A stretch of 64,000 nucleotides of DNA from an uncultured Gemmatimonadaceae bacterium (GCA_963781585.1 CAWAGQ010000007.1:422886-486885); one strand, 5' to 3'. Shown: positions 7,386-64,000, numbered from the stretch's first letter. The notes: generated by a model from the letters alone, not told the origin. A program made the numbers and translations.

Positions 7386-7394
7386 TGCGGGCCC

Positions 7395-8810: not shown

Positions 8811-8876
8811 GCGCGCACGGTAGCATCGGGAAGGGACCAGGCACCAGTGCCCGCCTTCGCCTGCCACGGGGGAGAC

Positions 8877-46188: not shown

Positions 46189-46563
46189 CTATTTCTTCGG
46201 TGGCGTCATGAGGATCACGCCCTTCCCGCCATCGGGATCCAGGCAGTCCCCCTGGTAGCTCCGGTCCTTGCGCAGCATGAGCGTGCAGTTCACGACAGGA
46301 CCCGGCGTGAACTTGAACGTGATCCGGTCTGCCAGGACTTGGATTTCGGTGAGCGGCTGCGCCCCCATCGGTCCGGCGTTCATGGTGATCTTCGTGGTGT
46401 CACCGCTGGCGGTCACGTCGAACGTCACCTGGAGCACGTCGCCGCCTGGCGGCGTCACCGTGCCGGTCCACTGGCCGGCTTCGAGCTGCTGCGCCGCGAG
46501 TGCTGCGGGCGCGAGCAGCAGGATCGCGCACGACAGCAGGAACGACTTCGATCGACGAGTCAT
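46189..46563 (-). CDS. Secreted hypothetical protein
   Basis: Signal peptide, GQWTG, two Cys. Confidence 0.7.
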   Translation of the reverse strand: MTRRSKSFLLSCAILLLAPAALAAQQLEAGQWTGTVTPPGGDVLQVTFDVTASGDTTKITMNAGPMGAQPLTEIQVLADRITFKFTPGPVVNCTLMLRKDRSYQGDCLDPDGGKGVILMTPPKK

Positions 46564-46753
46564 CTCGGCCTCGGGCAAGGGGGGAAGGAGGGGAGGGGAT
46601 TGTCCAGCGTACGTGCCGTATTGTCCCGGAGTTCCCGGTTGCCGGAATGACAAATGCGTCCCAAGGGCAGGTGCGGCCGTTCGATCTCAGTGCCCACGGA
46701 CGTGACATCGCAAAGCGATAGGGCGAGCCCGTACCCACCGTTGTCATGGTGTG

Positions 46754-47569
46754 TTACGGGAACAGATCGGTGAGCGCTGCGGTCGGGAACGCGGGACTGA
46801 GCGGAATGGCGCCGTTCCAGAACTGCGCAGTAGCTGCCTGAACGCGCCGCACGTCTTCGGCCGTGAACTGCGACTTGTGACACGCCATGGAGCGCCCCGC
46901 CGCCTGCAGATCCTCCGGGGTGAACGGCACCCGGACCGACAGATACCGCGGGTCCGGCACCAGGAAGGGCGGCACACCACGCTGCGGATTCATGTCGCGA
47001 ATTGCGTCGGCGGGCAAATACATGTAGAAGACGCGATCGGGAACCCCAGGCGCTCCGGCGCGCTGGAGCTGCGTCACCATGCTGCTCACCATTCGATGGT
47101 CCGGGTGCCCCATCCCTCCCTCCGGCCCCCAGGTGACGATCGCATCGGGATGCAAACGCTGGAGCTCCTCGGCGATGCGCTGCGTCAATCGGTACGCGAG
47201 CGCGCGATCGCCGACGTAGTCACCGAGCTTGCCGTCCGGAAAGGCCAGCAGAATGGGCGGTTTCACCCCGAGGGCCTGGGTGGCGCAGCGCGCCTCCTCG
47301 GTACGCGCACGCACGAGGTCCTGGCCGCGCGGCGCCGTGTCCCCGCGCGCGGCGGCGAAGCCGGTGCCCTGTCCGCCATCGGTTGCGATCAGCAGATAGA
47401 CCTGGACGCCCTCGCGCGCGTACCGGGCGAGTATCGGCGCAGCCGGCCCCTCGTCATCGGCGTGCGCCAGCACGGCGACCAGTGTCCGCGGCGACGCCGT
47501 TTGCGAGAGCGACCTGCGTGGGGAGACGAACAGCAGGGTCGCGAGGATGACGGGAATCAGCGAGTACAT
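46754..47569 (-). CDS. PIG-L family deacetylase
   Basis: AHADDE, ATDG, R.EEA, GHPDH, CHKSQ. Confidence 0.9.
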   Translation of the reverse strand: MYSLIPVILATLLFVSPRRSLSQTASPRTLVAVLAHADDEGPAAPILARYAREGVQVYLLIATDGGQGTGFAAARGDTAPRGQDLVRARTEEARCATQALGVKPPILLAFPDGKLGDYVGDRALAYRLTQRIAEELQRLHPDAIVTWGPEGGMGHPDHRMVSSMVTQLQRAGAPGVPDRVFYMYLPADAIRDMNPQRGVPPFLVPDPRYLSVRVPFTPEDLQAAGRSMACHKSQFTAEDVRRVQAATAQFWNGAIPLSPAFPTAALTDLFP

Positions 47570-47689
47570 CGTGGGCGCGGGGCCTGGCCCCGCGCCACTC
47601 CTCGGATCTGGCAACGGCATTGGTCGTTAGGTGGCGGTCACGCGCCAGGCGGCGGTCGCGATGCCGAGGCGGTGTAGACCCGAGACCGC

Positions 47690-47980
47690 TCAGGGAAACA
47701 GACGAGAAAGGAACACGGCACCGACAAGCCCAAGGAGAACGAGCACTCCAAGGTGGCGAGCTGGCCACGAGCGTATTCCGGGGGCTGGCGGCTGCAACCG
47801 CTCACGGATCGCCTGGTCGACCGCGGCCGGCGAGATACCGGCTTCGGTAGCGATGGCGCGCAACGCGGCGGCGTCAAGGCGCTCGCTGCGTTGGGCATCG
47901 AGCGCTGCAGCGCGCGCCATGATGTGCTTCGCGTCAGAGTCGTCGAAGCCCGGATCGGGACTGACTGGATCGGAACTCAT
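47690..47980 (-). CDS. Small hypothetical membrane protein
   Basis: IMARAAALD...AIATEAGISPAAV plus C-terminal TM. Confidence 0.65.
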   Translation of the reverse strand: MSSDPVSPDPGFDDSDAKHIMARAAALDAQRSERLDAAALRAIATEAGISPAAVDQAIRERLQPPAPGIRSWPARHLGVLVLLGLVGAVFLSRLFP

Positions 47981-48275
47981 ACGAAACCTCCAGAGTATCG
48001 CGTGCGCCGCCGCCGCTCCCATCGAAGGCACAACGACCCGCGCGTGAGTAGTTCGTAAGCGGGCCTTGTTCTGCATACGGTAGCTGCTGCGATGGCAGAG
48101 CGCTACGGCGGCGGTAACTCGGCCAGGTGGGCCGGTCCCCGGTATCGACCAGTCGCGCTTTGAGCGAGCGGCGTGCGGCGCGTCGAGGCGACTTCATCGC
48201 GGTGCGGCAAAGCTCGAGATGTGGCGCGCGCGAGCACGTCTCGGAGAGCGCGCCCCGCGTGCACACGCGCGTATT

Positions 48276-49718
48276 TCAATGCACGCGGTGGAATAATCGG
48301 TGGGGTTTCCCGCGCGCATTGTCGTTCCCTGCTGATTGACGCGACGTAATTACTCGCCCGGCGGACTCGGAAGCACGTGCATCACCTTGTGGAGGTCGGC
48401 GTTCACGATGCGGATGTCCCCCACCGACCCGGCTGCCCCTGCGCGGGCGGGTATCCCTCGACACTGAAGCTCCCCGTGGACCGTTGCCGCTGAAGGGGAG
48501 TGTCAAGGTGAGGGTGACGCCCTCGACTCCCGGGAGCGCGGCGAGGCGCGGCACCGCAGTGTTCCAGAAGCAGAGCCGCGTGGTGTCGTTCGTGTACCTT
48601 GCGGCGGGGAGCTGCATGCTGAATGTGAGGCGGTTGCTCGCGTCGAAGCCCGGGTCCACGCTGGAGAGGCGCGCGAAGCTCTTCACGCGCAGGACGGCGC
48701 CGGTGAGCAGGGTGAGGGCGAGCGCCATTTCGGCGACGGCCAGCCCCTTGCGCAGGCGGTGCCCCGAACGATCGACAGCAGAGCTGCGCCCGCCTTACTT
48801 CAGCCTGTGCTGCAGGTTCGTGCGCGACGCTTGGATCGCGGGGATCAACCCGAAGAGAAGCCCGGTCACGAGCGAAACGAGGAGCGCGAAGCCCAAGACC
48901 GTTGCATCGATCGCGAGCTGGTCGCCGCGCGGGATGTTGGCGGGGCGGAGGGCGATGACCGCGCGCATTCCGGCCAAGCGAGGCCGATGCCGAGGACGCC
49001 ACCCAGCAGGGCCAGGACGACCGACTCGACGAGGAGCTACCTGACAAGGGTGCGGCGCGACGCACCTAACGCCGACCGGATGGCAACTTCGTTCATGCGC
49101 GCCGCCACGCGGGCGAGGAGGAGATTGGCGACATTGGATGTCGGCCTGCGGGTTGAAGAGCTCTTGGAACCCCTGCGGCATGACGCCGACGACCTGATAC
49201 CTCTCGTTGTTGAGGATGACGGAGCGGCCGGTGGTGGAGGCCTCGCCGCCGAACTCGCGCTGCCAGAGTCTCCAGGACACGACGACCTCGTGGTTCCTGC
49301 CGAGGGCATCGTCGTCGGGTTGCAGCGCGCGGCCGCGGGCCCCGGGGACGCCCAGCGTGGAGAAGTACGGACCGGAGATGCGGCGTCCCTGGAGGCGTCG
49401 GGCTCGCCGGTGCCCGTGAGGGCGGGGGCCCAGCCGTTCTCGAGGAAGAGGCCGTCGAAGACTTGGCCTCTTTCGGTCAGTTCGCGGTCCGGGGCGGAGA
49501 GCCGGCCTCGAGTTATTGAGGGAGGGTTAGAAGTGGTCGATCGTGACGAGCCGATCGAGGCTTCTATGAGGAAAGGGGCGCAGGAGGACGGTGTTGACGA
49601 CCGAGAAGATGGCCGTATTGGCGCCGATGCCGAGGGTGAGGCGGACGACGGTGGAGAAGCCCGGGGATCTACGGAGGCGACGCAGGGCGTAACGGATGTC
49701 TTGGACGAGGGTGTCCAT
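48276..49718 (-). pseudogene. Degraded ADOP-type ABC permease
   Basis: [38 protein letters not shown] fragments with frameshifts and internal deletions. Confidence 0.8.
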
Positions 49719-50434
49719 GGGCGGCTCGTCTCCCAGCTGGGTTGTCGTGCGGACTATCGGCCGCTCCGGGGTCAGCCCTGGTCCCGGGTGTTCTGGGGGC
49801 CAAAGACGGTTACGGAATATGGACAGTCGGGTCTCGGGGAGGTTTGATGGGTGGGTGAGATGAGTAGTGAGCGGGGTGGGGCGTGGGGTACGGGGCGTAG
49901 AAGCGGCAGGCTGGAGCGCGCAGCCTGATCCGCTTTGAGCGTCGGTGCGTGCGGGAATTGGTCGGGCCCGGGCGCGAGAGTGCGGGCGCGCGCGTGAGCG
50001 GAGCCTCGGGGGTGTTCCGGATTCAAGAGCGTCCTGCCCAAGGTGTGCTCGGGGACCGGCGGGATCGGGATTGGGTCCGGGGAGTGCCGAGTTTGGAGGC
50101 GATGTTACGTCGTGTATCGTCAGTGCCCATGGCGGGTGTGTCGGGGCGCAGTTTCGCGTGGGATATTCCGCGGTGGATCGAAAGCGGGTCGGACGAACAA
50201 CGGCCGCAAGTTGGGATCATGCGGCTCGGTACAGATTTGCGACCGTTCGCTTGGATAGGAGGTTTTCGTGGGATGTCGCTGGCGCCCGTCGAAGAACGCT
50301 CAAGCCAAGAGGCGGTGCGTATCTATGGGTCGGAAGGCACGATGCCGTCGATAGCCACGTTTGGCCGCGTGTATCGGCGACTCGGGTAGGCGACGCGGCG
50401 GGAATGGGAGCTGACCGGAAAATAGACGGCCCAT

Positions 50435-52318
50435 GTGTCGGGAGAACTGATGAGGGCGACGTGGCATTTCCGTGAATTCATGCCTGGTGACAACGTCTCG
50501 GACCCGGAATTCACGAAGGCGCTGTTTACGCGTGGTAGTGATGGCGTGCTCGCTCGTGGAGTCGTCCGGGAATCGATCCAGAACTCACTCGATGCGCGCC
50601 GACCCAGAGACGGAACGGCCCGGGTAAGGTTCTGCCTGAGACGCGGCCGCATGGCCGCTCGCTTCTCCGGCGCCGAGGTATTCCTCGAAGGCATCTGGGA
50701 GCACATGGCCGCGAAGAACGCGGGCCTCCGGAGTCCTCCGGTGAGAAGTGCACCGATTCCGTTTCTGGTGGTCGAGGATTTCGGTACAAGCGGCTTGACC
50801 GGCGATCCTGCGCAGTGGCAGCCATTCGGTTCCGAGCGGAATCCATTCTTTCTCTTCTTCCGCGCCTTGGGGAGAAGCGGGAAAGAAGGTGAGGACCGCG
50901 GGCGATGGGGTGTGGGGAAGTTCGTGTTCCCGATGGCCAGCGATGGAAGCAGCTGGTTCGGCTACACAGTACCGTCCACAGGCGGCGGCCCGGCGCTCAT
51001 GGGCCGAGTCGTCCTGAAGACGCACGGCACGTCCGCGAAGTCATTCCACCCGGATGGCCACTGGGGTTTGCGAAGCGGTGACAGCTCTCTCGTAATGCCC
51101 GAGGTCGAGCGAAGCGTACTGGCCGCGTTTCGCACCTTGTTCGCATTGCAGCGTCAGGAAGAGCCGGGGCTGTCGGTCGTGGTTCCCTGGATCACCGAGG
51201 AGATCTCCGGCGAGTCCCTCCTCGAAGCTGCTATCCGCGAGTACTTCCTGCCCATTCTGCGCCGCGACCTGATAGTGGAGATCGACGACAACGGCCAGCG
51301 TACGGTGCTGGACGATGGCAGCCTGCGCGCCATGGTTGACGACATCCAGTCTGAATTGGACAGGGCGTACGTAAGCATCGGAATCGCGATTGCGGATTCT
51401 GACACAGGCCTTACGGAGCTCGGCTCGCGGATTCGCTACGACGAGATGGAGTGGCCTGAAACGCCATTTGGCGAAGGGGACGAACAGCGGCTCCTGCATC
51501 GCTTGGAAGAAGGGGAGCTGCTCAACGTGCGCGTGCCGATCGAGGTCAAGCCAAAAGACGAGAGACCGCGGCCGACTCACTTCGATGTGTACATGCAGCG
51601 CGTCGAAGGGCTCGGCCGGGCACGACCGCTGCTTGTACGCGAAGGCATAACGATTCCCGAGGACAGGACCACCGCCTTGCACGGGATTGCGTCCCTTGTC
51701 ACAATCGACGACCGTCCCATCGCAGTCTTGGTCGGCGACTCCGAGTCACCTGCACACACCGAGCTCCAGTACCAGCTGATCAAGGACAAGTACACCTACG
51801 CCGGCAAAGTCTTGCAGCTTCTGCGTGCTGCGTCCGCCAGCATCGTCAAGACCTTGGAGCACTCCTCGCAGGAGGATGACCCCTTTTTGCTTGCGCAGTT
51901 CTTTCCCGTATCGACGGACGATGAAACCCGCCGTGGCGAATTGGAGACCCGGAGGAAGAAGGGAGCCAGTAGAGAGCCGCCGCCGACCGGCATTCCGCCG
52001 GGGCGTGCTCCGAGGGTGCGTCTTGCAAGGATCGACGGAGGATTCAGGATCACAGAGGCAAGTGACGCTAGCGAGGTACTCGGCGAGGTGACAGTTCGCT
52101 GCGCCTATGACGTCCGTCGCGGCAATCCGTTCAAGCGCTATCGACCGTTCGACTTCACGTTCAGTCAGGCCGATTTGGGGGTTGATGTCGAGGGCGCCGA
52201 AATCACACTGCGCGAAGACAACCGTTTCGCCTTCAGACCTAGCGGATCGAAGTTCGAGTGCAGGGTGACAGGCTTCGATCCCAATCGCAACCTTATCGTC
52301 AAGTACGAGATCGAGTAA
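50435..52318 (+). CDS. GHKL (HATPase_c-like) ATPase with uncharacterised C-terminal region
   Basis: RESIQNSLDA (N box), EDFGTSG (G1), GRWGVGK (G2); probable start is ATG 50450 after GGAG. Confidence 0.8.
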   Translation: MSGELMRATWHFREFMPGDNVSDPEFTKALFTRGSDGVLARGVVRESIQNSLDARRPRDGTARVRFCLRRGRMAARFSGAEVFLEGIWEHMAAKNAGLRSPPVRSAPIPFLVVEDFGTSGLTGDPAQWQPFGSERNPFFLFFRALGRSGKEGEDRGRWGVGKFVFPMASDGSSWFGYTVPSTGGGPALMGRVVLKTHGTSAKSFHPDGHWGLRSGDSSLVMPEVERSVLAAFRTLFALQRQEEPGLSVVVPWITEEISGESLLEAAIREYFLPILRRDLIVEIDDNGQRTVLDDGSLRAMVDDIQSELDRAYVSIGIAIADSDTGLTELGSRIRYDEMEWPETPFGEGDEQRLLHRLEEGELLNVRVPIEVKPKDERPRPTHFDVYMQRVEGLGRARPLLVREGITIPEDRTTALHGIASLVTIDDRPIAVLVGDSESPAHTELQYQLIKDKYTYAGKVLQLLRAASASIVKTLEHSSQEDDPFLLAQFFPVSTDDETRRGELETRRKKGASREPPPTGIPPGRAPRVRLARIDGGFRITEASDASEVLGEVTVRCAYDVRRGNPFKRYRPFDFTFSQADLGVDVEGAEITLREDNRFAFRPSGSKFECRVTGFDPNRNLIVKYEIE

Positions 52319-52322
52319 CCCC

Positions 52323-53075
52323 ATGCCGACTCGCCGCTTCAACTATACGCATTGCAGGAGAATCCGTCGCGAACTGGTGGACGTTCGCATCGACACCAGC
52401 GCCGAACCAGCGACGATTAGCGCGGATTTCGACGTCACCCAACTTGATCTGCCGGAGGAGGCGGAAGTAGTTCTCGAAGCGTACGTCGACTGGACGATCA
52501 TGCGCTTTCCTTACGGAAAAGTCGCCGAACACCGCCCACCGTCATCGACGGCCCTTAGCGAGTTTGATTCGCTCGACGGAGTGAAGTGTCGCCTCAAGGT
52601 GCTGGGAACAGGAGAGCACTCCGGTCTGATTCTTGCCAAGGCCGACGGAATCCATCCGTCTGCCCCAGGCGCACCGCAGCATGCGCGATCGTTCGTTCTG
52701 GTACGTCCGGCGGACTTGGGTTCGGTGGTCTGGCAGGTCACCTTCGATGAAACGGAGCCAATCCTTCAGGTCAACGAGCGGCTTGCAGACTGGAAGAGTT
52801 TTCTGAACGCCCCGGGCATTCGTGCTCTGCTGCTTCCCGAGGTACTCAGGCAGTTGCTCAGGGAAGCCGTCCAACGGGGCCGGGATGAGGAGGCTGAGAG
52901 CGATTGGCCGAGACAATGTGACCGGCTCGTCGCCTCGCTCGGCTACGGTGCCCTTCCGGATTCCGACGACGACGACGAAGCCGAGAGCTGGGTCGATGAT
53001 GTCGTCCGGAAGTTCGCACAGCGGCATCGGCTCTGGGCGGGCGTTGCGGAGCTGTTCGATACGGGAGATTCCTGA
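52323..53075 (+). CDS. Hypothetical protein, second gene of the GHKL operon
   Basis: 250-aa ORF 4 bp after the ATPase stop; TGATG overlap with the next gene. Confidence 0.8.
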   Translation: MPTRRFNYTHCRRIRRELVDVRIDTSAEPATISADFDVTQLDLPEEAEVVLEAYVDWTIMRFPYGKVAEHRPPSSTALSEFDSLDGVKCRLKVLGTGEHSGLILAKADGIHPSAPGAPQHARSFVLVRPADLGSVVWQVTFDETEPILQVNERLADWKSFLNAPGIRALLLPEVLRQLLREAVQRGRDEEAESDWPRQCDRLVASLGYGALPDSDDDDEAESWVDDVVRKFAQRHRLWAGVAELFDTGDS

Positions 53076-53798
53076 TGCAACTGCGAACACTTAATGCCGG
53101 CGGTATGCAGGAGGCATCGCGCATCCTCGATTCAATACGCGAAGGCGACGAATCGAACGTTCCGCAGGATTTTCTCAGGAACGATCGCTATTCAACTGCC
53201 GTGGGAAAGCAGGTCACGCGGCCAAAGGTGGGAGAGCTCCCCACCAGATGGCACCTCGGGCTGTGGTTGTATAGTTTGCTCGAGGTTGCGATTCCGGAGC
53301 GTGATCTCTTCGGTGACCCGGGCATTGTGGTCTTGGCTAGCGTTCTTTCTGTTTGATACCATTTGTCCGGAGCGCGACGGCGCTCGCAAGCTCGCCGAGG
53401 ACGCTAAGTACATCCTGAGCAAGGGCGATTATCGCAAGGCGTACCGCCATCTTGGTGTCCGGACCCTACTACATGATCCGGGCGCACAACGAGTCTCCGG
53501 CGGACGTCCGCGCTCTGCTGAGCAACCCCCCGGAGTCGCCGGGTAACATGTACGAGCAGCTGGCATCCCGAAAGCAGATCGTGACAAGCGCCGCCGCCAT
53601 GCGAATTGCGAACGAGATGTACTGGGACGCGCGAGGAGGGCGGGTTCGTCGGGGAGCAGCCGGTGCCGGGGCCGGAAGCGCGCGCAGATACGCCAATGTT
53701 CTCATGCAGTACGATGTGACGCACGACATCTATGCCATCAGTGCGGCACACCTTCGGGAGCTCCTGCCACCCGAGTTCGACCACTTGTCCGGAGTTGA
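53075..53798 (+). CDS. Hypothetical protein, third gene of the GHKL operon (two frameshifts; end approximate)
   Basis: ORFs 53075, 53094 and 53452 join as ...[18 protein letters not shown]...YRHL/VSGPYY...LLPPEF. Confidence 0.6.
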
Positions 53799-54063
53799 GC
53801 CTTCGTGGGCTGCAGCTTGCTGCATGGACCCTGTCCAAGCGGGATTCCCAGCCGCGAGCAAAGCGGTCGGGCGATCACGCGATGGCCAGAGCGCACTGAG
53901 GTTTGCGCGAATCGGCGACGGTCCTTGGCTCGCAGGCCGTTGTGATCAACTATTGATGAGAAGACCCGGAGTCTGGGGTCGAGTGGAGTGCCCCGGTGGG
54001 GAGCGTCTCCAGCTCACCGTAAGTGGCCTTGCCGAAGGGACAAATCGGTGCCACATTGTCCCC

Positions 54064-55349
54064 ATGTCGTCCGTCCGAATAAATACCGGCAACGGAAGCG
54101 CTGCAGCTGAAGTCCGTGGCCTGCGGGCCCTTAGCGGGCTTTCGCAGCCTGCCTTCGCGGTGCTCGTTGACAGGTCGCTTCGCACGATCAAGCGCTGGGA
54201 AAGCGGTGAATGCGAGCCGGAACCGCTTGCACTACGGGAGCTTCGACGGCGATTCGTACGTGATGTCGACTCCATTTCGGAGCAGCCCTCCTTCCGTTTC
54301 GTCGACCTGTTTGCCGGCATAGGAGGCTTGCGACTGGGCTTCGAGGCGATCGGGGGGCAGTGCGTCTTCACTTCGGAGTGGGACGCCCACGCCCAGCGCA
54401 CGTATCGCGCGAACTTCGGCGATCACGACATTGCCGGCGACATCGTGGCGATCACCGCCTCTCGGATACCGGAACATGACGTGCTCCTGGCCGGGTTCCC
54501 CTGCCAGCCATTCAGCATCGCGGGTGTCTCGAAGAAGAACGCTTTGGGCAGGCCGCACGGATTTGAATGCGAGACCCAAGGAACGCTTTTCTTCGAGGTC
54601 GAGCGGATTCTTGCCGCGCATCGCCCGAAGGCGTTCCTTCTGGAGAACGTGAAGAACCTGCAGGGCCACGATGGCGGAAAGACCTTTGCCGTCATCATGC
54701 GCACTCTGCGAGAGAAGCTCGGATACAACGTATGGCATCGGGTGCTGAATGCACGCCCCTTCGTTCCCCAGCATCGCGAGCGGATCTTCATTGTCGGGTT
54801 CCGCGCGGACACCGACTTCAGCTGGGAGGACGTTGAACTTCCTCCTCGACCCGAGTGGCCAGTGCTGCGATCCGTCTTTCATCCGGAAGATGGGAGTGAG
54901 GCTGTCGAGGAGCGTTTCGTTGACGAGCATGGGCGGGTGCTGAAGAAGTATGTTCTCACAAAGCACCTCTGGACCTACCTCCAGAACTACTCGGCCAAGC
55001 ACCGCGCCAAGGGGAATGGCTTCGGTTTCGGTCTGGTCGGACCCGATGACATCGCGCGCACGCTCTCAGCACGCTACTACAAGGATGGCTCCGAGATTCT
55101 GGTGCGACGGCGGCGTGGCAACCCGCGCCGCCTCACTCCGCGCGAGTGCGCTCGACTGATGGGCTTCGATCGGGGCGTCCGCCACTGGCAGATCCCGGTT
55201 TCCGATACGCAGGCGTACAGGCAGTTCGGCAACTCGGTCGTCGTGCCGCTGGTGGAAGCGGTCGCGCGCGCGATGCGTCCCCATATCGTTGATGAAGTTG
55301 ACGGCCCGAAGCGGGAGCAACTGTCTCTGAGTTGGCCGCCGCGAACTGA
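54064..55349 (+). CDS. dcm: DNA (cytosine-5) methyltransferase, Dcm/M.EcoRII family, with N-terminal XRE-type HTH
   Basis: [50 protein letters not shown]; as assembled it reads in frame into vsr, so the end is inferred. Confidence 0.92.
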
Positions 55350-55350
55350 C

Positions 55351-55791
55351 GTGACGGACATCGTCGACCGCGCCACGCGCAGCCGGATGATGTCCGGCAT
55401 CGGCGGCAAGAACACCGCCCCGGAGCGTGCGGTGCGGAGCTCCCTGCATCGCCACGGACTGCGATTCAGGCTCCACCATTCGGATCTCCCGGGCAAACCG
55501 GATATCGTCCTGCCACGGTACAGGGCAGCCGTGTACGTGCACGGTTGCTTCTGGCATCGTCATCCGAGCTGCCGTCTGGCCTATATACCTTCATCCAATC
55601 GGACTTTCTGGATGCGCAAGTTCCGCGAGAACGTCGAGCGTGATCGACGGAATCTCCGTGACATCCGGAGGCTGGGCTGGAGGCCCTTCGTCGTCTGGGA
55701 ATGCAGCCTGACGCCCGGCCGGCTTAACAACTTGGCCCGGAGGATCACTTCAATCCGGCCAGCCGAGACAAGACGTGGCGGAAGACACTGA
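55351..55791 (+). CDS. vsr: Very short patch repair endonuclease
   Basis: RSRMMS, T.PE, LPGKPD, VHGCFWH, VWEC. Confidence 0.92.
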
Positions 55792-57007
55792 ACTCACCGA
55801 CTGGTTCGACCACGTAACGGGCACCGAGTGGTTCTGGTACGTCAAGTATCTCTCGGCGAACGACACGTACGCCAAGAAGAACGTGCATCAAGGCGGCCCC
55901 TACATCTCGAAGGACGCGCTCAGGCTGCTGTTTCCGCGGCTCGAAAAGAGGGCGAATCGGGTTTCGAATCCGGACCTCACGCTTCCGGCAGAAGTCGACT
56001 CCCATGGGGCGTGGGACCTGACCCTGCGCTTGGTCTGGTACAACTCGAAGCGCCTCGGCCAGAAGAACGGCCGCGACGAGGCACGACTCACGAGATGGGG
56101 CGGACTCGACGCGCCCGTGGTGTCAGCCGGGTCGACGGGCTCGCTGACCATCTTCGCCTTCCACCGTGCCGGGCAAGCCGACTCGGATGGCCTGCGCGTC
56201 TGGGTTGCCCGCGACGGGGATGATCATGATCGCATTATCGATCGCGTCGGACCGGTCGAACCCGGAGCGGGCATACTCCTCACCGCGACAGGAATTCTTC
56301 TGGCTGAAGCGCCTCGGCTCGTCGACCGGCCCTGTCACCTGACCGAGAAGACCCTGCCACCAGGATGGAGACGCACTTTCCCCCCAGGCGAGGAGCTGAT
56401 CGGCCTCGTCGTAGCGAGCCTGCCGTCAGTGATAACGAAGGTCGAGGATGAGCGACTGCTTCTTCGCCGCGCGTGCGAGTACGAGATGTTCCGGTCGGTT
56501 GAGGAGTACCACGTCCTCCCCCGGCTGCAGGAGAAGTTCGCCACCGTCGACCTGTTCGTCGAATTCGCGCACATCGTCACGAATCGCCGGAAGAGCCGGT
56601 CGGGCAGATCCCTCGAGTTGCATCTTGCGAGGATCTTCGACGAGGAGAGTCTGTCCTACTCAGCGGGCAAGCACACCGAAGGACATCGCAGGCCAGACTT
56701 CGTCTTTCCGTCCATGGAGAAGTACTGGGATGGGCACTGGCCTGACGAGCGACTGCGAATGCTCGGAGCGAAGACGACGGTGAAGGACCGCTGGCGCCAG
56801 ATACTCAACGAAGCGCGCCGTGTCCAGACCAAGCACCTGTTGACGCTCCAGGAGGGTGTCTCGGAGGAACAGTTCCGGGAAATGCGCGAGTCGGGCGTCG
56901 CTCTCGTCGCGCCGAAGGCCCTCCACAAATTCTATCCGCAGGAGGTGCGCTCGCGTCTCACGACGCTGGCGGCATTCGTGAAAGAGACCCGGGCTGTCTG
57001 CGGTTGA
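55775..57007 (+). CDS. Type II restriction endonuclease, EcoRII family
   Basis: N-terminal KYLSANDT effector domain; [23 protein letters not shown]. Confidence 0.92.
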
Positions 57008-57264
57008 TTGTGCTCTCATTTCTGAGCAGCTCGATGATCTTCGGTGATGCCGTAACCTCACGTACAGGCGGGAGGTGCGGCGGTCAGCCATTCACCGTGA
57101 TCGCTGGTGTCACGACTGGCTTCATCAGCACGCAATGCAGTTGAGGTAGACTTTCGGGGGTGCCTCGTGCCGCAACTGCTGCAAGGCGTCAATCGGCGCA
57201 GAGCCGCTCGGCGCCGCCCCGGACGGGCAGCGGCAGGACGGCGCTGATCAGCCTCGCGTCATCG

Positions 57265-58698
57265 TCATCTCGCCACGCCGACCGCTGGCGCGTCAGGCAG
57301 CGGCCCCAGCGGCGGCGCAAAGTCGAACCCGAAGAGCTTGGGATTCGCGCCGATCACCGCGGCGGCGACCACCCGTAACACGTAGTTGTACGTCTCATCC
57401 GGGATCTGGCGCCGGTGCTTCTCGAGCAGCGCCCAGAAGTTCCGTTCCGCCGGCGAGTCCGGCATCGACCGGATCAGGTTGCGGACCCGGGTCTCGCCCA
57501 TGTTGTACGAGGCCATCACGAGGAGCCCCGAGGCCTGCGCCTCGGTCGTGTACATGTCCTCGAGGTAGCGCGCTGCGGCCGCGGTGGACTTGGCCACGTC
57601 GTACCGCTCATCCGAGGGATCGTAGCTCGGCTCCCCTCGCAGGGGACCGAGCCGCAACCCGTACGATTCGGCCGTGGACGGGGTGAATTGCCACAGTCCC
57701 TTGGGGAATCCGAGACGCGTCGACGGCCCGACGGCCTTCGGATCGAACTTGCTCTCCTGCAAGGCAAGGTAGAAGAACTCGCGCGGCAGGTGGTGTTGCA
57801 GGAGGATACCGGATACCAGCGGGCCGAGCCTCTGCGTGTTGGCGCGCGCCAGGCTCGCCTCGAGATCCGCAGCCTTCCACCGGGCGATGTATTTGCGGAC
57901 TTCATTCACGAAGTCGCGAGGCACGGTGGCCTCGGATTCGCCCAGCCGGTGGACGATCCGGTAGATGAGCTGGACGTCCGCGGGGGTCCGGTCGCTGTAG
58001 ATGCCAAGCGTCTTGACGAGGTTCTCGTACTGCGTCTCGAGGCGCGCATGGCGCTCCTCGATCGACTTGTCGGGGCCGGATACCGCCTGCAGGCGCCGTA
58101 TGTCCAGCTCGAGCGACTTCATCGTGTTGAACACGGCGCCCGCGGTCTCGCGCAATTCGCGCACGCGGCGGGCCTGCACGACCGCGACGGCCGCCGCGCC
58201 GGCGGCGACAACCAGAAGCACCCCGACTGCCACGTGAAGGTGGCGTACGCGCCGCAACCACGACCTGATCTCCATCGCGCGGCTGCGCTGGACCGCCGCG
58301 CGGATCATCGCGGTGTACGACGACATTTGCTCCGGTGCCTCGGAGGCGAGAAACCGGTCCGCGATGTCCTTGGCAGAGACCCGGCGGGTCGGGGCCCGCC
58401 TGACGAACCCGGGAATGCTCACGCGCAGCTCGGGCCCGCCGGCTCCCAGGCGCACCATGTTCTCTGGGCCGAGCGCTGCGCGACTGACGTGTACGCCGTC
58501 GACGAACATCCCGTTCGTGCTGCCGAGGTCCACGACCTCCCACGCCTCGCCACTCTTCCGCAGTTCGAGGTGCTCGGCGCTCACCCGATCATCCTGCACC
58601 ACGACCCCGTTCGTGTCCGCGCGACCGACCCGAACGGTGTCCGTGAATCGAAGGACTTCAGTGTCACCGGGAACCAGAACGTGTATCTCGTTCGACAT
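57265..58698 (-). CDS. FHA domain - TM - lytic transglycosylase (SLT/MltD-like) protein
   Basis: VGR, VSAEH, DLGSTNG (FHA); TM; ALQES, GLWQF, ASYNMG, ET.NYV (SLT). Confidence 0.88.
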   Translation of the reverse strand: MSNEIHVLVPGDTEVLRFTDTVRVGRADTNGVVVQDDRVSAEHLELRKSGEAWEVVDLGSTNGMFVDGVHVSRAALGPENMVRLGAGGPELRVSIPGFVRRAPTRRVSAKDIADRFLASEAPEQMSSYTAMIRAAVQRSRAMEIRSWLRRVRHLHVAVGVLLVVAAGAAAVAVVQARRVRELRETAGAVFNTMKSLELDIRRLQAVSGPDKSIEERHARLETQYENLVKTLGIYSDRTPADVQLIYRIVHRLGESEATVPRDFVNEVRKYIARWKAADLEASLARANTQRLGPLVSGILLQHHLPREFFYLALQESKFDPKAVGPSTRLGFPKGLWQFTPSTAESYGLRLGPLRGEPSYDPSDERYDVAKSTAAAARYLEDMYTTEAQASGLLVMASYNMGETRVRNLIRSMPDSPAERNFWALLEKHRRQIPDETYNYVLRVVAAAVIGANPKLFGFDFAPPLGPLPDAPAVGVAR

Positions 58699-59011
58699 GT
58701 CATTCCCCGTCCGGGACTGGCGCGGGCGCCAGGTCGAGCACTGCGGGCACAGGTGCACGAATTGGGGTGTCCGCGCGGCCCGGCGAGCGACGCAGGCCGG
58801 CAGCCGACAGGGAGTTTGAGGACGAGGACGGCCGGAGACAACCCGAGCAGCCAGCCCCGTTGCCGGATTCGCCAGGTCAGGAGCTGCACGATAGAGCGCG
58901 TCTGCCTCCATTGGGCGGCGCACTCGCACAGGGCCGCCGTCCACGTCGCCGCCGCACCGTTGACGTTCCGGCATTGCGTGCGCCTGGGCCGCGATCGAAG
59001 TTCCGGCCGGG

Positions 59012-61408
59012 ATGACTTTTCGTGCGACGACTACTGTCAGGGCACAGCGATCGACGATTGCTCGTCCCGGTTCGGGTCATGGACTCCGGCGAGCCGCATG
59101 CCGGCCGCCTGTTCGACGCCTCACGATCGCGGTGGTCGTGGCCCTCGCATCGGCGCATCCGGCGCGCGCACAGGGCCCCATCATAGACGGTCCTGCTGCG
59201 CCGATTGCGCCCGAGGTGATCACGCGTAGCGCCGATGGCCGGGCCACGGTCCGCGCCATCAAGCTGACGACACCACTCAAGGTCGACGGCCGGTTCGACG
59301 AGGACGTCTACACGCGCGAAAAGCCCTTCGGGGGATTGATCCAGGTTGCGCCACACTACGGGGAGCCGCAGACGGAGCGCAGCGATGTGTGGATCACCTA
59401 CGACGACCACAATATCTACGTGTCGTGCCGGTGCTGGGACTCGGCGCCCCCCGACCAGTGGGTCGCGAACGAGCTCCGCCGCGACACGAACGGCTTGCGC
59501 CAGAACGACCACTTCGGCGTCATGTTCGACACCTTCTACGATCGCCGCAGCGGGTTCGCGTTCTACACCAACCCGTTAGGCGCGCGCGCCGACTACTCGG
59601 TCGTCGATGAAGGCGGCTCGAACTCCGACTGGAATCCGGTCTGGACCTCGAAGACCGGCCGGTTCGACGGGGGGTGGACCGTCGAGATGGCGATTCCCCT
59701 GAAGTCGATCCGCTATCACGCGGGCCCGAACCAGGTCTGGGGAATCCAGCTCCGACGCTCCATCAGGCGCAAGAATGAGTGGGCCTACCTGACCCCCGTG
59801 CCCCGGAGCCTCGCCGGGCCGCAGGCGTTGAACCGCATCTCGGCCGCCGGCACGCTGGTTGGCCTCGATCTCCCACCGGCCGGCAGGAACATCGAGCTCA
59901 AGCCGTATGTCGTGGGGCGGGTGACGACCGATCGGCTGCAGACCCCCGCCGTGACGAACGATGTTGGCGCCGAAGCCGGCGGCGACGCCAGATACGCCAT
60001 CACCCCAAACCTCACCGCCGACTTCACCGTCAACACCGACTTCGCGCAGGTGGAGATCGATGAACAGCAGGTCAACCTCACACGCTTCAGCCTCTTCTTT
60101 CCCGAGAAGCGCGACTTCTTTCTCGAGGGCCGGGGAATCTTCGACTTCGCGCGCGGCGGCACCGGCGCGACCGCCAGCGCCAATTCCACCGACACGCCCT
60201 ATCTCTTTTACACGCGGCGTATCGGTCTCGAAGGCGGGCGGGTGATCCCGATCAATGAGGGTGGTCGTCTCACCGGCAAGGTTGGCCCATACGCCATCGG
60301 GCTCATGAACATTCAGGCCGGACACGAGGCGGTGTCGCAAACCGACGCCACGAATTTCACGGTGGTGCGACTCAAGCGGGACGTGCTGCGGCGCAGTGCA
60401 ATCGGCGTGATGGCGACCAATCGGTCCCCATCGGACTCGGGTTCCGGTACGAACCAGGCATATGGAATCGATGGCAGCTTCTCGTTTTTCCAGAATCTGA
60501 GCTTGGGTACCTACTGGGCGCGCACCGCGACCACGGGATTGCATGGTGACGATCAGAGCTATCAGGGGCGGCTCGACTACAACGCCGATCGCTACGGGGC
60601 ACGGGCCGAGTTCCTGTCGGTCGGTCGGAATTTCAATCCGGAGATCGGCTTCACCCGCCGCACCGATTTCAGCCGATCGTATGCCCTGCTGCGCTTCAGC
60701 CCGCGGCCAGGCCGCATCAGCGGCATCCGCAAGTTCACGTGGACGGGATCGGCGGAGTACGTCGTGAACGGTGCGGGGTCCGTCGACGCGCGGGTGTGGG
60801 TTGGCCACTTCGGCACCGAGTTCGAGAGCAGCGATGAGTTGTCGTTCGACATCACGCGGGACTACGAGATGCTGCGCCAGCCGTTCACCCCCGCGGGCTC
60901 TTCCACACCCATCGCACCGGGCGGCTACACGGCCGACCACGCGTCCGCGACGTACGCCTTCGGCGCGCAGCGCCGCGTGTCCGGAACAATCTCCGTGCAG
61001 GGCGGAGAGTACTACGACGGCACGATCCGGAGCGTCACTATCGGTCCCGGTGGTGGGTTTCCGGGGCGGGTGTCGATCCTCAGGCAGTTGTCGCTCGAGC
61101 CGACGTTTTCGCTCACCCGTATCGTGCTGCCTGATGCGTCGTTCACTACGAGACTGGCGCGGGCGCGCGTTGACTACGCCTTCTCGCCGCTCATGTTCGC
61201 CAGCGCGCTGCTGCAGTACAACTCGGCCGACCACGCCTTCAGCACGAATCTGCGGTTTCGATGGGAATACGCGCCTGGCAGCGAGATCTTCCTCGTCTAC
61301 ACCGACGAGCGCGACATGACCAGCGACCGACTCGCCACGCCGACGACGATTCGCGGGCTCAAGAATCGGGCGTTCGTGGTGAAGGTCAATCGACTGCTGC
61401 GATTCTGA
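59012..61408 (+). CDS. DUF5916 / CBM9-like domain outer-membrane protein
   Basis: WTVEMAIP, NTDFAQVE.D, FPEKRDFFLEG, FYTRRIG; C-terminal Phe; start uncertain. Confidence 0.85.
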   Translation: MTFRATTTVRAQRSTIARPGSGHGLRRAACRPPVRRLTIAVVVALASAHPARAQGPIIDGPAAPIAPEVITRSADGRATVRAIKLTTPLKVDGRFDEDVYTREKPFGGLIQVAPHYGEPQTERSDVWITYDDHNIYVSCRCWDSAPPDQWVANELRRDTNGLRQNDHFGVMFDTFYDRRSGFAFYTNPLGARADYSVVDEGGSNSDWNPVWTSKTGRFDGGWTVEMAIPLKSIRYHAGPNQVWGIQLRRSIRRKNEWAYLTPVPRSLAGPQALNRISAAGTLVGLDLPPAGRNIELKPYVVGRVTTDRLQTPAVTNDVGAEAGGDARYAITPNLTADFTVNTDFAQVEIDEQQVNLTRFSLFFPEKRDFFLEGRGIFDFARGGTGATASANSTDTPYLFYTRRIGLEGGRVIPINEGGRLTGKVGPYAIGLMNIQAGHEAVSQTDATNFTVVRLKRDVLRRSAIGVMATNRSPSDSGSGTNQAYGIDGSFSFFQNLSLGTYWARTATTGLHGDDQSYQGRLDYNADRYGARAEFLSVGRNFNPEIGFTRRTDFSRSYALLRFSPRPGRISGIRKFTWTGSAEYVVNGAGSVDARVWVGHFGTEFESSDELSFDITRDYEMLRQPFTPAGSSTPIAPGGYTADHASATYAFGAQRRVSGTISVQGGEYYDGTIRSVTIGPGGGFPGRVSILRQLSLEPTFSLTRIVLPDASFTTRLARARVDYAFSPLMFASALLQYNSADHAFSTNLRFRWEYAPGSEIFLVYTDERDMTSDRLATPTTIRGLKNRAFVVKVNRLLRF

Positions 61409-61513: not shown

Positions 61514-63946
61514 TCACTCCACCCGCAATGCCTCCGATGGCGCGATCTTCGCCGCGCGTCGCGCCGGCAGCAGCGAGGCAAGTACGGCGACGGCCAGGAA
61601 CACGATGGCGCCGCCGACGAAGGTGATTGGGTCGAATGCGCTCACACCGTACAGCAGGCTGGTCATCACCCTGCCCAGTGCGAGGGCCGCCGCGAGACCG
61701 AACACCATGCCCAACGCCGCGAGCGTGACCCCCTGACGCACGACCATCCCGCGAATGGCGCCTGCGGTGGCGCCCAGTGCCTGACGGATGCCCAGTTCCG
61801 CGGTGCGCTGCGTGACGGTGTACGAGATCACGCCGTAGATCCCGACCGACCCGAGGAACAGACCGACCAGCGCGGCGAGGGCGAGCAGCAACGTGGCGAA
61901 GCTGGTGCGGTTCATCGACCGGCTCACGAGCGCGCCCATCGTCTGTACGTCCGTGATCGGCAGCAGGGGATCGAGTTCGCGAATCTCGCGACGCACACCC
62001 GCGATGAGGGACTGCGGCGATCCGGTCGTGCGTACCGCGACCGACATCGCACGCACCCCGCCGCCGACCGAGTCCATCATCGGCATGTAGATGGTTGGTT
62101 CTGTCGCCAGCTCGAGCCCCAGCTGGTGCACGTCTCCGACCACACCGACGATCCTGGCCGGGGCGGAAGACGGCGCGACTCGTCGCCCGAGCGGACTCGA
62201 TTGGGGCCAGAACCGATTCTTCACGCCCTGGCTGATCACGGCCGTTCCAAGTCGCTGCTGGTGGTCGCGGTCTTCGAACGATCGACCCTCGATCAGCGGG
62301 ATCCGCAACGCTTCGAAATATCCGGGTGTGACGCGACGCACGTGGAACGTCGGCGGGAACTCGTCAGGCCCGGTCGGGTGGTCCTCGATCTCCGTGGCCA
62401 GGATCGTAGCGCCACCGCCGGACAGCGGCAGCTGGGTAACCGCGCCGGCAGCCTGCACGCCGGGGAGGGCGCGCAGGCGGCTGAGCAGCTGATCGTAGAA
62501 CTGCGACGTGGCCACTGGCGTGGCATAGCGACTGGGCGGTGGCGATAGCCGGAACGTCAGGAGCCCGTCGGGGGTGAATCCCGGCTTCACGGCCCGGAGC
62601 TCCTGAAAACTCCGCACCATCAAGCCGGCGCCGACGAGCAACAGCAGCGCCATCGCCACCTGCGTGACGACCAGCATCTGCCGGGCGCCGTGGCGTTCGC
62701 GACCGACCGTCGAACCGCGACCGCCATCACGCAGCGCGGTGACCATCCGGTACGAGAACGACCGGAGCGCCGGGAGCACGCCGAACAGCAGTCCCGACAA
62801 CAGACTGATGGCCAGCGTGAACAGCAGCACGCTGGGCGTGATGCCTATCTCGTGCAACCGCGGAATGGCCGCGGGGCCCAGCGACACCAGAAGCCGCGTG
62901 CCGAGGTACGCGAGCAGGGTCCCGGCCGCCCCGCCGGCGAGTGCCAGGACCAGACTCTCGACGACGACGTACCGCATCACCCGGCCGCGCCCCGCGCCGA
63001 GCGCGATCCGAACTGCCGTCTCGCGGGTGCGCCCTTCGGCCCGCAGCAGGAACAGATTGGCCACGTTGCTGCACGCGATGAGCAGCACGAACCCGACGGT
63101 GCCAAGCAGAACGAGCAGCGTCTGGCGGACGTCGCCGACGAGTTCCTCCCGGTACGAGCGCACGTACGCCCGGCCTGAAAATACGTTCTTCATCCACTGC
63201 GACGTGTAGCCGGCTTCGGGGAAACGCGCGACGAGGGCCTCGGTTTCCGCGAGGGCCGACCCCAGCGTGGCGCCCTTGGCCAGCCGCGCCACCGCGGAGA
63301 TGTGGTGGCCGCCGAAATTCGGACTGGCCGGGTCGAGCTGATAGGGGAGCCACACATCCACGTCGGGTGACGGAAAGTCGTATCCGTCGCGCATGATGCC
63401 GATCACCTCGCGGCGCCGGCCGTTCAGATCGATCGTCTTGCCGATGATTCCGGGTTCCGCACCAAATCGCGACTGCCAGAGCCGGTAGCTCACGAGCGCC
63501 ACCAGCGGCCCGTTCGGTGCGTCCTCCTCCGCTGACGGCAGGCGCCCCCGCAGGGGGGGGACCCCCAGCGCGTCGAACGCGCTCCGCGTCATCACGCCCG
63601 CGGTCACCTCCACCGGCGTTCCCTCGTCACCGACGAGCGGAATCTTCAGCGCGGTGTAGCCGCCGAACGGCTCGAAGCGCCGGCTCTTGTTCACGAAGTG
63701 CCAGTAGCCGCGGTCGGAAAAGGGGAGTTCGGGCACACCGCCGGGTGTCGCGTCGACGCTGATCGTCACGATGTTGTCCGCGTCCGGGTACGGCAGCGGC
63801 TGAATCAGCACCCCGTCGACCACCGAAAAGATGGCCGTGGTCGCGCCGATTGCGACCGCGAGCGTGAGGACGGTGACGATCGTGAACGCCGGGTTCTTCG
63901 CGAGGACGCGGAGGGCCATTCGGATGTCGCGCAGCAGCTCGGACAT
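61514..63946 (-). CDS. ABC transporter permease, duplicated MacB/FtsX (ADOP-type)
   Basis: DIRMALRVL, LLIACSNVANLFL, RTAELGIRQALGA, PSEALRVE. Confidence 0.92.
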   Translation of the reverse strand: MSELLRDIRMALRVLAKNPAFTIVTVLTLAVAIGATTAIFSVVDGVLIQPLPYPDADNIVTISVDATPGGVPELPFSDRGYWHFVNKSRRFEPFGGYTALKIPLVGDEGTPVEVTAGVMTRSAFDALGVPPLRGRLPSAEEDAPNGPLVALVSYRLWQSRFGAEPGIIGKTIDLNGRRREVIGIMRDGYDFPSPDVDVWLPYQLDPASPNFGGHHISAVARLAKGATLGSALAETEALVARFPEAGYTSQWMKNVFSGRAYVRSYREELVGDVRQTLLVLLGTVGFVLLIACSNVANLFLLRAEGRTRETAVRIALGAGRGRVMRYVVVESLVLALAGGAAGTLLAYLGTRLLVSLGPAAIPRLHEIGITPSVLLFTLAISLLSGLLFGVLPALRSFSYRMVTALRDGGRGSTVGRERHGARQMLVVTQVAMALLLLVGAGLMVRSFQELRAVKPGFTPDGLLTFRLSPPPSRYATPVATSQFYDQLLSRLRALPGVQAAGAVTQLPLSGGGATILATEIEDHPTGPDEFPPTFHVRRVTPGYFEALRIPLIEGRSFEDRDHQQRLGTAVISQGVKNRFWPQSSPLGRRVAPSSAPARIVGVVGDVHQLGLELATEPTIYMPMMDSVGGGVRAMSVAVRTTGSPQSLIAGVRREIRELDPLLPITDVQTMGALVSRSMNRTSFATLLLALAALVGLFLGSVGIYGVISYTVTQRTAELGIRQALGATAGAIRGMVVRQGVTLAALGMVFGLAAALALGRVMTSLLYGVSAFDPITFVGGAIVFLAVAVLASLLPARRAAKIAPSEALRVE

Positions 63947-64000
63947 GGGGCACCCGTGAGTCGGAGACGCGGACCATCCGCGCCAGGCGTGGTGGTACGG

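Follow-up and report, generated by a model that had tools for sequence, protein, structure and literature searches.

Introduction

According to the accessible part of Iyer, Abhiman and Aravind 2008 (PMC2292703), GHKL ATPases of the MORC and paraMORC families are predicted to belong to restriction-modification (R-M) systems that also encode cytosine methylases, Vsr, helicases and nucleases. In the accessible parts of two further reports, proteins of related design defend against phage: Tiamat, a GHKL ATPase fused to a nuclease (bioRxiv 10.64898/2026.09.30.754977), and the GHKL-nuclease protein of GHKL-Shedu, VcSduA/paraMORC3 (PMC12137116). Closest to the operon described here is PDC-M33, a three-gene candidate of the PADLOC collection. 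Our subject is a stretch of 64,000 nt from an uncultured Gemmatimonadaceae bacterium (GCA_963781585.1 CAWAGQ010000007.1:422886-486885), called the window below, with all gene coordinates counted from its start. It carries three genes, g1, g2 and g3, directly upstream of an EcoRII-type R-M system. A reading made from the sequence alone had proposed that this trio, headed by a GHKL ATPase, is a candidate anti-phage module and, as far as computation goes, the proposal is supported.

Relation to PDC-M33

Is the trio a known system? The sequence-only reading had called it unrecognised. That stands in that neither a curated family nor, in PADLOC, a validated named system covers it; it does not stand for the ATPase, to which the PADLOC model PDC-M33A (PDLC04582) gives a weak match. 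The match to g1 of the window (2.2e-12) is partial, extending over residues 41-306. The same model matches 15 of 15 g1 homologues tested, at 1e-10 to 3e-24. PDC-M33B (PDLC04583) matches neither g2 of the window nor any of 10 homologues, and PDC-M33C (PDLC04584-87, DUF6339) matches neither the g3 pieces of the window nor any of 10 intact homologues. With matches to its A model only, PADLOC would probably pass over the trio.

Profile-profile comparison carries one of the two partner proteins further. For g2, hhalign against the B family aligns 78 C-terminal columns at E 0.02 and a probability of 2.3%, a signal too weak to count. For g3, none of 35 homologues reaches the Pfam gathering threshold of DUF6339 (PF19866), the one match reported lying at E 0.11. 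Aligned as profiles, the g3 family (149 sequences) and DUF6339 (33 proteins) share 221 colinear columns at a probability of 71.7% and E 3.5e-5, with the LWxWL/LWTYL and RH motifs in register; g3 is probably a remote relative of DUF6339.

A true PDC-M33 operon is carried by the Arthrobacter agilis plasmid pAAG24-152 (NZ_CP117870.1, L081), where three consecutive genes for 628, 295 and 252 aa match PDC-M33A over its full length (3.5e-82), PDC-M33B (6.4e-30) and PDC-M33C (1e-31), the third gene also matching PF19866 at 3.9e-34. A dcm-vsr-restriction enzyme cluster flanks it on one side and a Shedu nuclease on the other. The same PDC-M33-type three-gene layout is found on an Enterococcus faecalis plasmid (L080), 3' of an AIPR gene. 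PDC-M33 and the trio thus agree in gene order, in having a homologous ATPase of about 630 aa followed by proteins of about 250-295 and 240-260 aa, and in adjoining either dcm-vsr-restriction endonuclease clusters or AIPR. They differ in that g2 and g3 escape the PADLOC models for B and C, and in that g1 matches the A model largely within its first 300 residues. Judged by these profile scores, the trio is best classed as a divergent sister of PDC-M33, itself a candidate system. Literature searches on GHKL/cytosine methyltransferase/Vsr defence, paraMORC and AIPR/Z1/HATPase/Mza returned no description of the trio.

Conservation of the operon

The g1-g2-g3 genes form one conserved, horizontally mobile operon that is translationally coupled and under purifying selection. 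A pattern scan of one genome per species yielded 397 g1 relatives; 79 loci were analysed, the presence of g2 and g3 at each being judged by tblastn. g2 lies directly 3' of g1 in 71 of the 79 loci and g3 is present in 62; the full trio occurs in 60, or in 60 of the 75 loci with room for it, and so behaves as the unit that had been supposed. In four of the 17 loci lacking g3 the sequence ends within 90 bp of g1 or g2.

The genes are also packed in the same way. In the window, four bases separate the g1 stop from g2, and the ATG of g3 at 53075 overlaps the g2 stop (TGATG); our open reading frame (ORF) calls agree here with the tight coupling that had been described. Such overlap is the general pattern across the loci, where the median extrapolated gap is -7 nt both for g1-g2 (n=59) and for g2-g3 (n=58). 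When the window is compared with its reference, L001 (CAVXFN010000004.1, an uncultured Gemmatimonadaceae metagenome-assembled genome), the ratio of nonsynonymous to synonymous substitution (dN/dS) is 0.20 for g1, 0.15 for g2 and 0.195 for g3.

By a manual tally of record titles, the loci come from at least a dozen phyla. Lineages with trio-family loci include Gemmatimonadota, Verrucomicrobiota, Chloroflexota, Planctomycetota and Actinomycetota (among them the cultured Arthrobacter sp. C9C5, L026, and Paenarthrobacter nitroguajacolicus SM1928, L024), Gamma- and Betaproteobacteria, Syntrophales and Syntrophaceae (Deltaproteobacteria-type), Nitrospirota, Nitrospinota, Acidobacteriota, Bacteroidota, Sumerlaeota and Patescibacteria. 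A tblastn search with g1 gave five distant matches among plasmids, two of which led to the PDC-M33-type operons of L080 and L081, and none among phage genomes. Incomplete loci are of two kinds, g1 with g2 only (L041, L051, L055, L057, L068, L069, L071) and g1 only (L050, L062, L063, L066, L074), and several of them have a g1-g2 gap of about 30-370 bp.

The C5 methyltransferase as conserved partner

What accompanies the operon? We clustered by blastp the 854 ORFs of at least 90 aa found in the 79 loci and left L042, where no g1 ORF was called, out of the neighbour counts, which therefore refer to 78 loci. Apart from the trio genes, the families that recur most often are a Dcm-type methylase, in 36 loci, Vsr, in 20, and EcoRII, in 12; the one that comes next reaches only six. 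In 36 of the 78 loci a C5 methyltransferase is encoded no more than 3.5 kb from the trio genes, as it is in 28 of the 43 with at least 3 kb of sequence to either side. Its median distance from the trio is 156 bp, with 21 of the 36 within 200 bp; 11 are upstream and 25 downstream, 24 on the same strand and 12 on the opposite one. The association follows the completeness of the operon, since the methyltransferase is found near 34 of 59 complete trios versus two of 19 incomplete ones.

Among the 36 Dcm-linked loci, 19 have Vsr, 12 have EcoRII and 24 lack it. An enzyme of the MvaI/BcnI family is present in four (L022, L024, L044, L045), and in 20 no restriction enzyme recognised by Pfam was found among the ORFs within 2.5 kb. 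The conserved partner of the trio is therefore a C5 methyltransferase, with or without Vsr, and not EcoRII, which suggests an independent system coupled to methylation and not an accessory of EcoRII. The earlier reading had left open a stand-alone system or an accessory or backup module of the R-M system; the former, coupled to methylation, is favoured, and the EcoRII accessory sits poorly with the 24 Dcm-linked loci that have no EcoRII.

The cleanest minimal form of the system is found at L039:5337-10772, a co-directional cassette of Dcm (5337-6983), g1 (7001-8893), g2, g3 (ending at 10357) and Vsr (10362-10772), with gaps of 18 bp and 5 bp. It is preceded by a 184-aa ORF without family match and followed by a methylmalonyl-CoA mutase gene. 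The methylases encoded upstream of the trio in L010, L027, L038 and L039 are 541-587 aa long; their C5-methylase domain occupies the first ~400 residues, and the C-terminal ~160-180 aa gave no family match.

The wider neighbourhood is typical of defence islands: restriction and defence families occur among the neighbours. These include AIPR (L035 and, with DUF4420, L026), McrBC (L078), Mrr_cat (L070), GmrSD_N with an AAA_15 ATPase (L075), HsdM (L056), an N6/N4 methylase (L058) and Cas3 (L064/L065); AbiEii, DndB, SIR2/DUF4917, HEPN_Swt1-Hsp70, PIN and transposases are also found near trio loci. In two Dcm-trio loci the end of g3 is overlapped by the gene for a ~980-aa protein that has a HEPN_Swt1 domain at its N-terminus and an Hsp70-like region (L017:6858-9830 and L020:10391-13324). 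It may belong to the system as an additional linked component, or be a defence gene that happens to adjoin it. A 732-aa protein with HATPase_c_3 and HATPase_c, encoded upstream of the trio at L023:353-2551, is a second GHKL-type protein in that island.

The GHKL ATPase

GHKL ATPases are recognised by an N-box (ExxxNxxD), a G1 box (DxGxG) and a G2 box (GxxGxG). All three had been read from g1, and all are conserved among 117 aligned homologues. In the N-box, E46, N50 and D53 are invariant; the G1-like box, E114-D115-F-G117-T118-x-G120, is a DxGxxG variant, and G156-R157-W158-G159-V-G161-K162 matches GxxGxG, both being invariant or nearly so. Further invariant residues are R402 and a cluster of G434, E437, P439 and H441, in which E437, P439 and H441 belong to an ExxxH motif, likewise invariant, towards the end of the transducer region.

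Sequence profiles do not recognise the protein. Of 7,995 candidates scored, 564 proteins fall in the g1 family at E<=1e-3; no Pfam domain is present among the 120 members listed, and those that carry a name are called hypothetical. For g1 itself neither Pfam nor NCBIfam has a family, the Pfam models HATPase_c and HATPase_c_3 do not detect it, a sequence search of the PDB gave nothing at E<=10, and the ESM Atlas returned hypothetical clusters only. HATPase models run against 30 g1 homologues gave no match at E<=1, and for these homologues too the Pfam, NCBIfam and PDB sequence searches came back empty.

The structure is more informative. An AlphaFold2 model built from the 117-sequence alignment reached a predicted local distance difference test (pLDDT) score of 90.4 and a predicted template modelling (pTM) score of 0.78, only residues 154-156 and 495-512 falling under pLDDT 50. 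Foldseek against the PDB gave 230 matches at E<=0.001, and the 42 of these that were listed are all GHKL proteins. The best is the topoisomerase VI B subunit (Topo VI-B) 9o0g_B, aligned along the whole chain at E 1.2e-12, followed by ParE/GyrB ATPase fragments, Topo II, TRAP1/Hsp90/GRP94 and MORC2 (2.6e-7). Because a confident model matches Topo VI-B, GyrB/ParE, Hsp90 and MORC2, the GHKL assignment holds: by its model g1 is a GHKL (Bergerat-fold) ATPase with a transducer, predicted to turn over ATP. The modelled chain consists of the GHKL domain, a transducer with a long helix at 456-480, a basic disordered linker at 495-512 and a C-terminal beta domain at 528-626. The long C-terminal stretch noticed earlier is therefore there, but it is not the unknown it was taken for, being largely transducer plus a small beta domain.

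The partner proteins g2 and g3

g2 gave no match in Pfam, NCBIfam, PADLOC or PDB sequence searches, and only hypothetical clusters in the ESM Atlas, which contains a structure for neither g1 nor g2. Its family alignment has six invariant residues, N7, T9, E52, R61, L148 and W223. g3 likewise has no Pfam, NCBIfam, PADLOC or PDB sequence match above cut-off. At E<=1e-3 its profile collects 1,962 representative clusters, and 861 still pass at E<=1e-30; the 150 representatives listed are, with few exceptions, stand-alone proteins of about 240 aa. Fused forms are rare. P0204 (758 aa) has g3 at 3-241, a Sigma70_r4-type helix-turn-helix (HTH) at 325-369 and then ~390 further residues without assignment, P0234 (409 aa) carries a C-terminal zinc ribbon on g3, and P0126 (368 aa) has a 130-aa N-terminal extension.

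The model of g3, made from the intact L001 copy (pLDDT 97.1, pTM 0.92), is mostly helical with a small N-terminal sheet. Foldseek found no match for it at E<=0.001 in the PDB, where the best lay at E 2.0, or among the BFVD viral models, and the fold is predicted to be unlike any solved structure. The structural comparison suggested earlier thus gave relatives for g1, all of them GHKL proteins among the matches listed, and no solved relative for g3. The two partners have a common N-terminal motif, of consensus IRRLNYTGR in g2 and LRRLNxxG in g3, and hhalign aligns their N-termini over 73 columns (probability 65%, E 6e-5). It is possible that this RRLNxxG-type motif is a common docking element.

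Comparison with other GHKL systems

With MORC and paraMORC proteins, as they are presented in the accessible text of PMC2292703, g1 has in common a GHKL domain with an S5/transducer-like domain after it, and the trio has in common the association with cytosine methylases, Vsr and EcoRII-like nucleases. In the same text paraMORC2 has an ExxxH motif late in its S5 domain, to which E437-x3-H441 of g1 corresponds as a likeness of motif and not as a comparison of sequence membership. The trio differs from the systems outlined there in having no conserved superfamily II helicase or restriction-endonuclease-fold nuclease as a partner. Clustering of the ORFs of the 79 loci revealed no recurrent helicase, the Cas3 helicase being confined to L064/L065.

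Topo VI-B of M. mazei and Sulfolobus resembles the g1 model in its GHKL domain, its transducer with a long helix and its C-terminal domain, and the alignment runs the whole length. The template modelling score is only ~0.35, sequence identity is ~10% and the root-mean-square deviation is large; the likeness is therefore one of shared domains rather than of a shared rigid arrangement. Topo VI differs from the trio in its partner, as no Topo VI-A/Spo11-like (Toprim) protein was found by the fold search with g3 or by the Pfam and PDB sequence searches with g2 and g3.

The mzaABCDE and AIPR/MORC/cytosine-methylase systems, in the accessible part of their description (PMC9523054), resemble the trio loci in bringing together a GHKL ATPase and a cytosine methylase, to which some loci add AIPR. 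The AIPR gene adjoins the trio itself in L026 and L035 and a PDC-M33-type operon in L080. The partner proteins of the trio differ from those of mzaABCDE, and none of g1, g2 and g3 matches a Z1, AIPR or HATPase_c_3 model.

Tiamat and GHKL-Shedu are alike to g1 in having an N-terminal GHKL ATPase, and in the accessible parts of those reports ATPase mutants of the tested proteins lose defence. There the ATPase is fused to a PD-(D/E)xK nuclease, whereas none is recognisable in g1, which is accompanied by two separate proteins.

Proposed function and alternatives

What might the trio do? We give an even chance to the reading in which it is the ATP-dependent, restriction-like effector arm of a methylation-checked defence system. 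g1 would dimerise on ATP and clamp DNA, as its structural relatives do, and g2 and g3 would dock on it to form a complex, perhaps through their common N-terminal motif. The two partners would supply target reading and/or cleavage; alternatively to cleavage by g2 or g3, the invariant D/E/H cluster around E437-H441 of g1 may be a metal site. The linked C5 methyltransferase would mark host DNA, which the complex, sensitive to that methylation, would spare, and Vsr would repair the T:G mismatches produced by deamination of 5-methylcytosine, offsetting the mutational cost. Such a complex would have nuclease activity and protect against phage. For the window this would mean two effector arms, the trio and EcoRII, that share one EcoRII-type Dcm.

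A bolder version of this proposal, which we consider conceivable but doubtful, is that Dcm with g1-g2-g3, with or without Vsr, constitutes a new ATP-dependent class of R-M system lacking a helicase or classical nuclease fold. The Topo VI-B-like GHKL clamp would carry or activate the cleavage site (the D/E/H cluster at 435-441), and g3/DUF6339 would read C5 methylation. The g3/DUF6339-type family amounts to about 2,000 clusters at 50% identity in many phyla. To our knowledge, very few methylase-linked GHKL systems have been tested, and those that have carry obvious nucleases or helicases. The trio has no recognised nuclease or helicase, although it is large, occurs widely and evolves under purifying selection. 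Should it restrict DNA, it would represent a new effector mechanism, provide a function for DUF6339 and PDC-M33, and explain many apparently orphan Dcm-Vsr pairs of environmental bacteria. Current defence finders would miss this branch, for which the alignments from the present analysis could seed models.

Several observations weigh against a methylation-checked effector arm. No nuclease or DNA-binding domain was recognised in g1, g2 or g3, whether by sequence families, in the PDB or by the fold search with g3, and some of the unannotated ORFs beside Dcm could encode restriction enzymes that escaped recognition, in which case the argument for the trio as sole effector would be weaker. With 25 of the 59 complete trios having no C5 methyltransferase within 3.5 kb, coupling to the methylase is either not obligatory or the methylase is encoded elsewhere. 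The neighbour counts include three near-duplicate pairs (L003/L004, L018/L019 and L064/L065). Some 13 loci have room for the whole trio but only g1, or g1 and g2; by title most are Planctomycetota. None of them has Dcm, and those examined lie amid ordinary metabolic genes. These incomplete loci may be a branch with a different role. In the window itself g3 is frameshifted, and our literature search found no publication on PDC-M33 or on DUF6339.

The trios without a nearby methyltransferase would be accommodated if the system were a methylation-independent defence, a sensor ATPase with effectors that possibly acts by abortive infection, and if Dcm, Vsr and restriction enzymes were close by only from the clustering of genes in islands. 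The variety of neighbours (AIPR, McrBC, Mrr, GmrSD, Cas3, AbiE, Shedu, HEPN-Hsp70) is what such clustering would give. We nevertheless think this unlikely. The next recurrent cluster outside R-M occurs in six loci against 36 for Dcm, 21 of those 36 Dcm genes lie within 200 bp and 24 are co-directional, and in L039 Dcm and Vsr bracket the trio in one cassette. It is quite unlikely, in our view, that the trio has no effector activity of its own and serves as an accessory of the adjacent type II R-M system, helping EcoRII or MvaI-type enzymes to find or bridge sites or controlling R-M expression. The trio does adjoin EcoRII in the window and in 12 of 78 loci, and MvaI/BcnI-family enzymes in four more; EcoRII needs more than one site, and a DNA-clamping ATPase would be a plausible helper. 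Such an accessory would be left without its principal in the 20 of 36 Dcm-linked loci without a recognised restriction enzyme, and in the 24 without EcoRII. The trio also keeps company with unrelated systems and occurs on plasmids with AIPR, and its synonymous divergence from L001 (dS 0.15-0.18) is unlike that of Dcm and EcoRII (0.31-0.40).

A housekeeping role is also to be weighed, in which the GHKL complex, like MutL, stimulates Vsr at T:G mismatches and so helps very-short-patch repair instead of defence. E. coli MutL does stimulate Vsr, the GHKL-plus-transducer architecture of g1 resembles MutL, and Vsr is near 20 of 78 loci and in 19 of the 36 linked to Dcm. The same count leaves most complete trios without a nearby Vsr; occurrence on plasmids, AIPR/Shedu/McrBC neighbours, a patchy distribution over phyla and the low GC of the island are in keeping with a mobile defence module, and the PADLOC authors chose the sister family PDC-M33 as a defence candidate. 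We regard repair help as improbable.

The copy in the window

The features of the locus are collected in Table 1. The trio is upstream of, and co-oriented with, HTH-Dcm, Vsr and EcoRII; the identity of these three genes, read earlier from the sequence, is borne out by their Pfam matches. The C5 methylase, Vsr and the EcoRII N-terminal effector and C-terminal catalytic domains all score far past the Pfam and NCBIfam cut-offs, which makes this an EcoRII-type type II R-M system.

Table 1. Genes of the trio and of the adjacent R-M system, in window coordinates
Feature	Position	Strand	Remarks
g1	50435-52318	+	627 aa; GTG start (ORF call)
g2	52323-53075	+	250 aa (ORF call)
g3	53075-53798	+	~240 aa; split across three frames
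HTH + C5 cytosine methyltransferase (EcoRII-Dcm type)	54064-55330	+	Pfam DNA_methylase 1.2e-80, HTH_31 6.5e-4; NCBIfam dcm 4.3e-93
Vsr very-short-patch T:G mismatch endonuclease	55318-55791	+	Pfam Vsr 4.7e-26; TIGR00632 3.1e-38
EcoRII-type restriction endonuclease	55775-57007	+	Pfam EcoRII-C 1.5e-62, EcoRII-N 1.4e-28; PADLOC REase_II 1e-80

Two start sites call for comment. The database protein P0001, of 622 aa, is identical to g1, and the true start of g1 is probably the ATG at 50450 that it implies. Dcm presumably starts at the ATG at 54064. A single stop-free frame, 53452-55791, spans the HTH with the C5 methylase and Vsr.

The window is 91.4% identical to L001 in DNA over 7.1 kb. In L001, g3 is a single intact ORF of 240 aa (L001:3312-4034), 94% identical to g3 of the window; alignment to it confirms the earlier description of a frameshifted third gene ending at 53798. 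In the window, g3 runs in the frame of 53075-53356, then in that of 53076-53546 and then in that of 53419 onward, until a last shift carries it to the TGA at 53796-53798. Each shift is a single-base difference from L001: one T too many at ~53325, one base too many at ~53454 and one T too few at ~53785. g1, g2 and EcoRII have no indels relative to L001. A fourth coding indel, of one base at ~55329, puts Dcm and Vsr of the window in one frame, whereas in L001 they are two overlapping ORFs in different frames; a genuine fusion, decay and a fault of the assembly are all conceivable.

Of the four coding indels g3 thus has three, in 724 of the 6,220 bp compared (binomial P=0.006). This concentration, with the remaining long ORFs of the window intact, favours real and recent inactivation as the simplest reading, with which the dN/dS of g3 agrees; a local sequencing or assembly error is a less favoured source of the frameshifts. 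Because g3 carries three of them, the copy of the trio in the window is probably inactive, and likely a recent pseudogene.

The synonymous divergence (dS) from L001 is 0.15-0.18 for the trio, 0.22 for Vsr, 0.31 for Dcm and 0.40 for EcoRII, a gap that hints at different histories of the trio and the R-M genes. From EcoRII to the next shared sequence there are ~2 kb in L001 but only ~300 bp in the window (L001:7142-9213 versus 56907-57205); this length difference is an indel at the right edge of the island.

The region had been judged by eye to be less GC-rich than its flanks, and 1-kb windows bear this out. GC is 0.598-0.627 over 50000-53500 and 0.60-0.63 over the whole 50-56.5 kb, compared with 0.667-0.692 over 46500-49500 and 0.66-0.69 over 57000-59500. 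As the values lie below those of both flanks, the dip is real, and it fits an acquired island. A search of the window for tRNA genes came up empty and thus pointed to no integration site, and a scan of 49500-57400 for promoters and terminators remained at the level of shuffled sequence (1 versus 1.3 expected and 5 versus 5.4). About 1 kb upstream of the left edge of the low-GC island, on the minus strand at 48276-49309, are fragments of a MacB/FtsX-type permease in several frames, with pieces missing. In BLASTP they match residues 170-236, 367-414 and 462-530 of an intact paralogue at 61514-64000 (E 6e-11, 1e-10 and 3e-12); this permease is a decayed gene.

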